Source of the DNA: Nanobdellota archaeon
GTDB lineage: Archaea; Nanobdellota; Nanobdellia; Woesearchaeales; UBA10107
NCBI GenBank assembly: GCA_038045085.1
Contig: JBBSYT010000078.1
Coordinates: 1-34,762 of the forward strand
DNA length: 34,762 bases
Direction: 5' to 3'
The position numbers and the translations under genes are program-made. The notes under the pieces are model-generated. The model ran no database searches. It worked only from the letters and a program-made list of their open reading frames with translations, and was not told the DNA's origin. Shown piece after piece: positions 10,395 to 11,699 of the stretch. The stretch's first letter is position 1. Every line of letters starts with the position of its first letter.

Positions 10395-10430
10395 TTTCTG
10401 TATAACATTTGTATACTAGACTAACTTGTA

Positions 10431-10865
10431 GGAATTATCCCTTAATCAAGCCTGGAACTTGTTTCTCTGTCGGGATTATTGTTTAATTTGCATGCAAATG
10501 CAAAGTTTGATTCAAAACGCGGGGGTAAACAGTTAGTTAAGGTTGAACTAATTTGTCGGGATAATCCCAGAATAGAAGAAATCATTCCGACTACGTCGGG
10601 ATTATGCACGAATGTTGTGATTTTGTGCAAAACATAGTTCTTCTTGAAAATACCTAATTTGGAGATTATGTCGAATGATTATTTTTGGTGAATTTTTTTA
10701 TGATTTGTAAATAAATTAAACCATCATTTGTGCCTAGGTGCGATTGATTGAGTCATAATTTGGTTCACAATTGGATTTCAGACATAATATATAAGTTTTG
10801 ATTAAAACTTTTAATCTTCCACTAGACAACCGCGCGTGAGGCTTATTAATCCGTCGGGATAATAT
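10431..10865. repeat. Array of GTCGGGAT(T/A)AT-like boxes upstream of the wHTH gene
   Basis: Plus-strand copies at 10469, 10555, 10595, 10670 (degenerate) and 10853. Inverted copy at 10581-10591, forming a 3-nt-loop palindrome with 10595-10605. Partial inverted copy at 10431-10441. Also a perfect 14-bp palindrome ATTTGCATGCAAAT at 10486-10499. Confidence 0.6.
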
Positions 10866-10884
10866 CTAATATAGAAAACAAAAT

Positions 10885-10900
10885 ACCGAATAAATTCGGT
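10885..10900. promoter_or_regulatory. Palindrome ACCGAAT-AA-ATTCGGT over the expected start region and leader of the wHTH gene
   Basis: 7-bp arms read directly from the sequence. It lies between an AT-rich TATA-like stretch (10860-10875) and the SD AAGAGGT ahead of the ATG at 10914. Confidence 0.4.
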
Positions 10901-10913
10901 TAAGAGGTAAAAT

Positions 10914-11414
10914 ATGTCAACAAAAATAGTACTAACGAATCATGAACCAAACATGAATCCAACGGCAGATGAGCTTAGTAAAGTCATTATGCACAGAATG
11001 GGGTTAATGCCGAGAAAAGAAGGTTCAACAGATAAAATGCAGAATGTTCTTGTAGAAATGTATGAGAAAATGAAATCTGCACAGAGAGAAAAACACCCAG
11101 AAGCTGCCGTAATGACGGTAGAGGAGATGGGACTGCATGCTGGAATAACGAGGCAAACTATGTATGATTATTTGAAACGTTGGGTTGAACTTGACTTGAT
11201 CAATAAAACATCCTACATTGCCGATGGGAAGGTTATAATCGGCTACAAGCTCAACGGAAACACATTAGAAAGCGCGTTTGAGAAATCTGTGCAAAGAATT
11301 ACAAATTATCTCGAGACTTCGATGAAGTATGTTCGAGAGTTGCAAAAATTAATTAAAAACGAGAAAATATCAGCTTCACAGCATAAAAACCAAGAAAATA
11401 GTGTTTTTGATTAA
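10914..11414 (+). CDS. Winged-HTH DNA-binding protein
   Basis: HTH-like segment GLHAGITRQTMYDYLKRWVELDLINK. Good SD site. Flanked on both sides by the box arrays. Confidence 0.6.
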   Translation: MSTKIVLTNHEPNMNPTADELSKVIMHRMGLMPRKEGSTDKMQNVLVEMYEKMKSAQREKHPEAAVMTVEEMGLHAGITRQTMYDYLKRWVELDLINKTSYIADGKVIIGYKLNGNTLESAFEKSVQRITNYLETSMKYVRELQKLIKNEKISASQHKNQENSVFD

Positions 11415-11480
11415 ATACTTTAAGCTTTTTATTAAGTTGATAGAATTATGTTTATAATTACCGATTAAAAGATTTAATCA

Positions 11481-11599
11481 TTCGGAATAATGCACGAAAG
11501 AGATTATTTCGACAAGAGTATGCAAAATCCACTAATCCCGAATAGATTAGACAGAATTCCTACTAAATTTTTCTTTACAACTGTCGGCATTATTTCGAC
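11481..11599. repeat. Second array of the same box family downstream of the wHTH gene
   Basis: Plus-strand copies TTCGGAATAAT (11481) and GTCGGCATTAT (11583). Inverted copies at 11503-11513, 11533-11543 and 11589-11599. TCGGAATAATGCACGAA (11482-11498) matches TCGGGATTATGCACGAA (10596-10612). Confidence 0.55.
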
Positions 11600-11635
11600 A
11601 TTAATTTGAAGTGAGACATTGGTATCAATAAAACG

Positions 11636-11657
11636 TATACTGAATATTTTCAGTATA
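11636..11657. promoter_or_regulatory. Inverted repeat TATACTGAA-TATT-TTCAGTATA upstream of the XRE-gene TATA box
   Basis: Perfect 9-bp arms. The TATA box TAATATATA (11672-11680) lies about 24 nt before the ATG at 11700. Confidence 0.4.
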
Positions 11658-11699
11658 GAAAATAAATAAGGTAATATATAGTTGTATTTAGTTGTCCCG

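Follow-up and report, generated by a model that had tools for sequence, protein, structure and literature searches.

Palindromic box arrays on both sides of a conserved winged-helix gene of Woesearchaeales are probable operators of an autoregulated, lineage-specific regulator

We analysed a 34,762-nt stretch of DNA from a Nanobdellota archaeon of the order Woesearchaeales (contig C78, JBBSYT010000078.1; the whole stretch is called the window here). The locus under study, positions 10395-11699, belongs to a genome of 849 kb in 116 contigs (G000) and consists of a gene for a 166-aa winged-helix protein and two long non-coding flanks carrying repeated copies of an 11-bp box. A preliminary description had read this arrangement as either an iteron-type replication origin or an array of operators, with the look of a mobile-element remnant. 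The repeats are real: the exact box GTCGRRATWAT occurs seven times in the window against 0.12 expected, and none of 100 shuffled sequences reached seven. Six of these copies lie within 10469-11599 (10469, 10555, 10595 and 10853 on the plus strand, 11503 and 11589 on the minus strand), while the seventh, at 1094, is outside the locus. Further copies with one or two mismatches, at 10428, 10581 (minus), 11481, 11532 (minus) and 11583, bring the locus to about 11-12 sites. The box coordinates of the preliminary description were all correct except that of 10670, which has three mismatches in an ungapped comparison; because relatives carry an inverted box ATAATTCCGAATGA at that position, we consider this copy a decayed site. 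On checking the sequence, we also found the head-to-head pair with its 3-nt spacer at 10581-10605, the palindrome overlapping itself at 11583-11599 (GTCGGCATTATTTCGAC) and the 17-mer common to 10596 and 11482 to be as they had been described.

The locus far exceeds every other part of the genome in box density. With a relaxed pattern, it holds 11 copies in 1.5 kb, against three in the next best window of the genome and a genome mean of 0.087 per kb, and in the complete relative G005 the orthologous locus is likewise the densest cluster (six copies versus four elsewhere). The locus is a strong outlier, so the box does not occur at similar density everywhere. The box proved to be the half-site of a palindrome, which comes in an inward form, TCGGGAT-W-ATCCCGA (for example 10555-10568 and 11583-11599 here, and TCGGGATTATCCCGA in other species), and in a head-to-head form, CCGAC-N3/4-GTCGG, exemplified by 10581-10605. 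Orientation is mixed, running +,+,-,+,- upstream and +,-,-,+/- downstream, and spacing is irregular, with 14-88 nt from centre to centre and start-to-start distances of 86, 26, 14, about 70 and 190 nt. Per-locus k-mer discovery was discarded as a motif finder, being too noisy.

P1 and F iteron plasmids combine origin iterons, a rep gene and control iterons. The locus resembles them in a winged-helix gene flanked by arrays of presumed sites, a site in the gene's own promoter and an adjacent AT-rich tract. It differs from them in lacking regular tandem direct repeats of 17-22 bp, in a protein with one winged-helix domain and no Rep signature, and in being chromosomal, syntenic and present throughout the order; it does not sit on a plasmid or mobile replicon, since the gene is syntenic and single-copy across genus and order. 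Of the two readings first offered, the operator array gained support and the iteron origin did not.

The non-coding regions around the gene are indeed unusually long, as had been remarked: the upstream gap of 519 nt ranks 14th among the 547 gaps of the genome free of open reading frames (ORFs), whose median is 75 nt, and family-wide the ORF-free flanks have medians of 389 and 338 nt. From 9449 onward the window is collinear with G005. Both flanks align across the genus at coding-like identity (blastn, about 69-81%), and the order and orientation of their sites recur in other families, including the site order of the 10541-10613 core. In 80 species the density of TCGRRATWAT is 1.27 per kb upstream of the gene and 0.95 per kb downstream, against 0.03 per kb within it and 0.20 per kb elsewhere, and its reversed control has no copy in the flanks; the boxes are most frequent at -300 to -500 and at +100 to +200 relative to the gene. 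Among 31 related genomes, those with the gene hold a mean of 3.6 palindromic sites versus 0.8 for the control, and those lacking it 1.8 versus 1.2. This co-occurrence of palindrome and gene, with three exceptions and in genomes that are related to one another, is no more than suggestive. Where the gene is present (14 relatives), a palindrome ranking among the few best of the genome is found within 0.3-2 kb of it in most cases. In the genus relative G004, a 183-bp core (10468-10650 here; L069:2061-2243 there) is inverted, and the inversion ends at two boxes of opposite orientation, as though copies of the box had recombined. The inverted core is still 77% identical, and this conservation argues for an orientation-independent function of the array at the DNA level.

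Three other features of the flanks did not share this conservation. The 14-bp palindrome ATTTGCATGCAAAT at 10486-10499, noted earlier, is present in the sequence and is not conserved in relatives, for which reason we rejected it as a feature; small ORFs at 10442-10637 were rejected on the same ground. The AT-rich stretch at 10675-10730, proposed as an unwinding element, does have a low GC content (17.9%, within the lowest 1.3% of the 56-nt windows of the genome), and its sequence is not conserved.

Long flanks conserved like coding sequence, with conserved spacers and a T-run at 10682-10687, could also encode small non-coding RNAs in which the boxes form hairpin stems, and boxes in inverted pairs can form hairpins, for which alifold gives z-scores of -3 to -4.5. 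We consider this very unlikely. The consensus folds of the genus alignment consist of the box hairpins alone, are weak (-5.6 to -11.7 kcal/mol) and score alike on the two strands, and changes in the box arms are uncompensated, as in an A-C mismatch of G005. The inverted yet conserved core of G004 argues against an RNA spanning the array, and the same boxes stand singly in promoters. Rfam, at gathering thresholds and at E values up to 1, returned no relevant match for the window, the flanks and five other loci, and ARAGORN found nothing in the window.

The AlphaFold model of the 166-aa protein (mean predicted local distance difference test score, pLDDT, 81) shows two helices, a winged helix-turn-helix (wHTH) at residues 62-113 and a helix at 118-164, a predicted winged-helix fold with a probable dimerisation element. 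The best Foldseek matches were MarR-family regulators, TFE-alpha and Sso10a; they were weak and generic (E >1e-3, TM scores of 0.3-0.4), and against PDB and viral structures nothing beyond generic wHTH matches was found. Neither Pfam nor NCBIfam placed the protein in a family above threshold, MarR (PF01047 and relatives) did not match, and HTH_Crp_2 gave sub-threshold matches in 14 of 16 family members. Sequence searches of the PDB, with the single protein and with a profile, were negative. No Rep family was matched in Pfam, NCBIfam or PHROGs, and the model contains a single wHTH rather than two. More than 600 homologues exist, all without a name, and at 50% identity they fall into just 55 clusters out of 1.84 billion representatives; a literature search yielded nothing on them. 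The protein is a member of an uncharacterised family specific to Woesearchaeota. Its gene occurs as a single copy in 14 of the 31 relatives of the order, at 44-92% protein identity (a range of 60-92% was also obtained across the order), and is a syntenic core gene, not a mobile one.

The promoter of this gene carries sites of its own. In the genus of G000, a 24-nt element, here called element E, occupies the place of a head-to-head operator, and a box (10853-10863) follows a few nucleotides after the TATA-like sequence. Over the wider family, CGAC-N3-5-GTCG was found at -160 to -20 of the gene in 22 of 77 loci, against two in the control and about 1.3 expected, and in 15 of these 22 the head-to-head palindrome ends 15-17 nt before a TATA-like box. 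A palindromic site at the gene's own core promoter is thus conserved among orthologues. Archaeal repressors with sites at either of these two positions interfere with the binding of TBP and TFB or with polymerase recruitment, and because the promoter positions match those of such repressors, we infer that the gene is autoregulated. The features of the locus and related sites are given in Table 1.

Table 1. Features of the locus, its neighbours and related sites in other contigs (positions refer to the window unless a contig is named; G000, genome studied; G004, genus relative; G005, complete relative)
Feature	Position	Strand	Remarks
Degenerate inward palindrome GTAGGAATTATCCC	10428..10441	+	First site of upstream array; position kept in genus relatives
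Box GTCGGGATTAT	10469..10479	+	Left end of the segment inverted in G004
Upstream array core	10541..10613	none	Most conserved part in the genus alignment; in order GGTTGAACTAATTT, box 10555-10568 (GTCGGGATAATCCC), palindrome 10581-10605, GCACGAAT
Head-to-head palindrome ATCATTCCGAC-TAC-GTCGGGATTAT	10581-10605
Decayed palindromic site AATTTGGAGATTATGTCGAATGATTATTTTT	10656..10687	none	Right end of the G004 inversion; GAGATAATTCCGAATGA or TCGGGATTATCCCGAATAAAAAA in relatives
AT-rich spacer	10688..10796	none	Poorly conserved
Palindrome P TGATTAAAACTTTTAATC	10799..10816	none	Possible site of a second factor
Element E TTCCACTAGACAACCGCGCGTGAG	10817..10840	+	Genus-wide promoter element with mini-ORB-like core (ORB, origin recognition box)
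Presumed TATA-like box GCTTATTAA of the wHTH gene	10841..10849	+	Aligns with ACTTATAAA/ATATATAAA/CTATTTAAA in the other 15 element E modules
Box GTCGGGATAAT	10853..10863	+	Few nt 3' of the TATA-like box; presumed typical archaeal-repressor position
Conserved palindrome CCGAATAAATTCGG	10886..10899	none	In presumed 5' leader; followed by Shine-Dalgarno GAGGT (10905-10909)
166-aa winged-helix protein	10914..11414	+	Presumed box-binding regulator; two N-terminal helices, wHTH, 47-residue C-terminal helix
Second copy of palindrome P GATTAAAAGATTTAATCA	11463..11480	none
Downstream array	11481..11599		Boxes 11481 (+), 11503-11513 (-), 11532-11542 (-), palindrome 11583-11599 (GTCGGCATTATTTCGAC); conserved motif ATTAGACAGAATTCCTAC
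XRE-family gene	11700..12047	+	This genome only; insertion, outside the conserved module
Coiled-coil and wHTH protein	12051..12548	-	Conserved convergent neighbour of the 166-aa gene; 72% identity to G005
Element E module copies	10817-10849; G000 C21:6184, C26:2792, C53:4441, C105:5798, C13:3990, C44:1152, C60:3742, C86:9790 and 10586, C89:741, C99:1318, C24:4134, C50:23666, C83:4938 and 5566
Classical oriC	G000 C33:1100-1450; G005 C1:213451-213956

Another conserved palindrome, P (GATTAAAAnnTTTAATC), is found at 10799-10816, 11408-11423 and 11463-11480. It precedes the wHTH promoter in many families and recurs at the start of the downstream array; a further factor may bind it, perhaps the protein of the neighbouring coiled-coil wHTH gene.

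The box also stands before other genes. Element E with its TATA-like box is present in 16 copies in G000 and in all five genus relatives, and is absent outside the genus; in 11 of the 16 promoters of G000 a box lies within 45 nt upstream of it. The same box-E module, GTCGRNATWATYCCGCA-CCACAGGACAA, is found in G005. Since this module fronts other genes, the box is a promoter-associated element and is not unique to the locus. In both G000 and G005 the module is followed by the wHTH gene, Hef (with helicase, ERCC4 and HhH domains), a ~95-aa protein, small ORFs after the third Orc paralogue, tRNA-like loci and LAGLIDADG genes, and in G000 only, by genes for MazE-like, PIN and DUF2683 proteins. The module reads TTCCAC(T/A)GGACAACCGCGCGTGAG plus the TATA-like box, usually with the box before it.

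The tRNA-like loci (L148-L150, at about C53:4150-4400, C44:870-1110 and C105:5870-6040) have a long variable arm and a T-loop insert of ~18 nt. In front of each stands a sequence that partly resembles the 5' half of the locus itself, and each appears to be driven by a box-E promoter; neither ARAGORN, with introns allowed, nor Rfam recognised the three loci. Elsewhere in G000, nine tRNA genes are packed into ~770 nt of a short contig (C94:548-1312), which is unusual for an archaeon and could reflect contamination or a mobile or viral tRNA array.

Our best explanation of these results is that the arrays are operators of an autoregulated, lineage-specific winged-helix regulator, the 166-aa protein, which has a small regulon, and we consider this probable. 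It starts from what can be seen directly, namely the sites, their clustering, the order-wide linkage to the gene, the promoter geometry and the predicted fold. We infer from the DNA that the 166-aa protein binds the boxes; the sign of its regulation and any looping are presumed in the same way. A dimer, probably joined through the N-terminal helices and the long C-terminal helix, would bind palindromes made of GTCGGGAT half-sites in either the inward (TCGGGAT-W-ATCCCGA) or the head-to-head (CCGAC-N3/4-GTCGG) arrangement. Autoregulation would follow from binding at the core promoter of the protein's gene, where the site comes directly behind the TATA box in this genus and abuts the TFB-recognition element (BRE) and TATA box in most other families. 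The distal arrays, ~300-500 bp upstream and 100-200 bp downstream, would act as auxiliary operators which raise the local protein concentration or allow looping or cooperative assembly around the gene, and through the same box in a fixed place before a shared promoter element the protein would control a small regulon.

Archaeal repressors with palindromic operators at their own promoters include MDR1, LrpA and Phr. With autoregulated winged-helix regulators such as the MarR family, the locus shares a wHTH with dimerising helices (predicted), palindromes of 15-25 bp as sites, one of which overlaps or abuts the BRE and TATA box or lies between TATA box and start, and further target promoters. 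It departs from them in the number and placement of its sites (11 or more, in one distal array upstream and one downstream of the gene), in conservation like that of a core gene, and in the weakness of the structural matches.

Several observations weigh against an ordinary autoregulated operator array. Most boxes are distant from the core promoter, and one of the arrays is enclosed by two convergent genes, a pattern unusual for simple operators. The spacers in the 10541-10613 core are as conserved as the boxes, so more than isolated sites is under selection. The 166-aa protein is 79.5% identical to its G005 orthologue, versus 72.7% for ribosomal protein L1 and 65.9% for RpoL, a level of conservation that befits a core information-processing protein and is atypical of ordinary regulators. 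Three genomes in which no homologue was detected (G010, G014 and G021) still carry 5-7 near-palindromes. A different protein could also be the binder of the boxes, for example the coiled-coil wHTH neighbour. Distal arrays on two sides and core-gene conservation are not explained by simple autoregulation, and they leave a limited share of the probability to a function in organising the chromosome and to a secondary origin, the two taken together.

In the first of these, an abundant nucleoid-associated protein with sequence specificity would load at the arrays around its own gene and spread along or bridge the DNA, which would make the locus a nucleation or centromere-like site with a role in chromosome organisation or segregation. 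Very high conservation of a single-copy protein, arrays outside promoters and between convergent genes, a conserved partner gene for a coiled-coil wHTH protein, and the presence of Sso10a, a chromatin protein with wHTH and coiled coil, among the structural matches would all suit this. We nevertheless regard it as unlikely, because no ParA/SegA-type ATPase is adjacent, the locus is 200 kb from the ORB origin in G005, and the fixed promoter geometry of the boxes at the gene's own and other promoters fits gene regulation.

Turning to replication, Orc1/Cdc6 is present in all relatives. Its paralogues in G000 are on C33 and C50, and C52 and C109 carry fragments; none is in the window, as the preliminary description had noted. 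A classical oriC was identified immediately upstream of the main orc1/cdc6 gene: three ORBs with G-strings (for example AATCTCCACAGGAAATGATGGGGTGGGTGT, read on the reverse strand) inverted around an AT-rich tract of ~170 bp, features that agree with published archaeal origins (PMC1904270). In G005 this origin is at 213.5 kb and the wHTH locus at 13.4 kb, ~200 kb away. In G000 it is next to orc1/cdc6 on C33. The skew analysis proposed earlier was uninformative. Cumulative GC, AT, purine/pyrimidine (RY) and amino/keto (MK) skews of G005 have their extremes at 88 kb and 568 kb; as they miss the ORB origin as well as the wHTH locus, they decide nothing.

A secondary chromosomal origin at the locus, with the wHTH protein as dedicated initiator or origin-binding factor, is in our view improbable. 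It would resemble WhiP at oriC3 of Sulfolobus (PMC3607249) or an initiator gene between two clusters of its own sites. The site clusters do flank the gene on both sides, as the two ORB clusters flank cdc6 in Thermococcales (PMC1904270), an AT-rich tract follows the upstream array, the G004 inversion speaks for orientation-independent function, and the protein is conserved at the level of a core gene. The core of element E is identical at 10 of 12 positions to the dyad of the genome's own ORBs, and the exact 16-mer TATAGAAAATAAATAA has only two copies in G000, one in the AT-rich tract of oriC and one at 11654. Other observations speak against it. The sequence of the AT-rich tract varies among relatives, near-copies of the 16-mer number 2-11 per genus genome, and boxes also occur in ordinary promoters and are of mixed orientation and irregular spacing rather than tandem iterons. 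A complete classical origin exists elsewhere, and the neighbouring genes point towards the locus and not away from it. Within 10395-11699 no ORB, defined by a TTCC...GAA dyad plus a G-string, was found, nor was any orc/cdc6, whiP-like gene for a protein with two winged helices, MCM or other replication gene found nearby. With archaeal oriC (PMC1904270) the locus shares an initiator-like gene between two clusters, an AT-rich tract and the mini-ORB-like core TTCCACTGGAC in element E; it differs in that the boxes are unrelated to ORBs and have no G-string, and that the GAA core of the ORB is GAC in element E.

The longer motif around the shared 16-mer, TTTTC(T/AG)ATATAGAAAATAAATAA, occurs at 11644-11669, just before the XRE gene, and at C33:1338-1360 in the AT-rich tract of oriC. 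It may represent a promoter type of leaderless genes.

It is also possible, with a probability well below that of autoregulated operators, that the protein, the two arrays and the conserved coiled-coil wHTH partner make up a dedicated nucleoprotein machine found in Woesearchaeota alone. This would be a secondary origin that does without Orc and has an initiator of its own, or else a centromere-like centre that organises the chromosome, and autoregulation would be a mere by-product.

Although element E resembles the ORB dyad, it has no G-string. One copy of it always lies ~280 nt downstream of the third Orc1/Cdc6 paralogue (G000 C50, G002 C20, G004 C38 and G005 61466). An Orc paralogue with a regulatory function may bind element E. 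A possible parallel, for element E and not for the box, is Orc1-2 of Sulfolobales, a paralogue of Orc1/Cdc6 that serves as a regulator in DNA damage (PMC6061795); element E is ORB-like and is found in promoters of Hef and further genes related to DNA. The Orc1-2 motif differs from element E, and an Orc paralogue is purely the presumed binder of element E.

The genes around the locus encode PAC2, XRE, the coiled-coil wHTH protein and RpoL, and a scan of Pfam domains and ORFs found no ParA/SegA ATPase adjacent. The coiled-coil wHTH gene is a neighbour in at least 32 of 80 loci, in 30 of them convergent. With three DNA-binding genes within 1.7 kb, and an XRE gene that no relative shares and that resembles phage regulator families, the region might be taken for the remnant control region of an integrated plasmid or virus, as suggested in the preliminary description, which also proposed a synteny comparison of 10395-12548. 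That comparison spoke against it: synteny of the wHTH gene, the two arrays and the coiled-coil neighbour extends through genus, family and order, and XRE alone is genome-specific. No relative of the single-copy core gene was found in 2.9 million viral contigs (IMG/VR) and no credible match among PHROGs, an integrase or Rep gene was not found, and the GC content of the locus is in line with that of the genome. We therefore give a remnant hardly any credence.

The coiled-coil wHTH gene has the motif AAGTGAGA(G) after its stop codon in all relatives, and in G000 this motif occurs on both sides of XRE (11611-11618, 11745-11752 and 12044-12051). This suggests that XRE arrived by a cassette insertion which duplicated the target end.

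To our knowledge, almost nothing is known of gene regulation in DPANN archaea, which cannot yet be grown alone. The locus offers a concrete and testable pair of protein and site, comprising a compact family restricted to Woesearchaeota, a defined palindrome, a conserved promoter geometry and a candidate regulon that includes Hef. The analysis also located the classical origin of these genomes and flagged an ORB-like element of promoters through which an Orc paralogue may be connected with transcription. Should the distal arrays prove to have a function beyond regulation of the gene, the locus would represent a new kind of chromosomal landmark.

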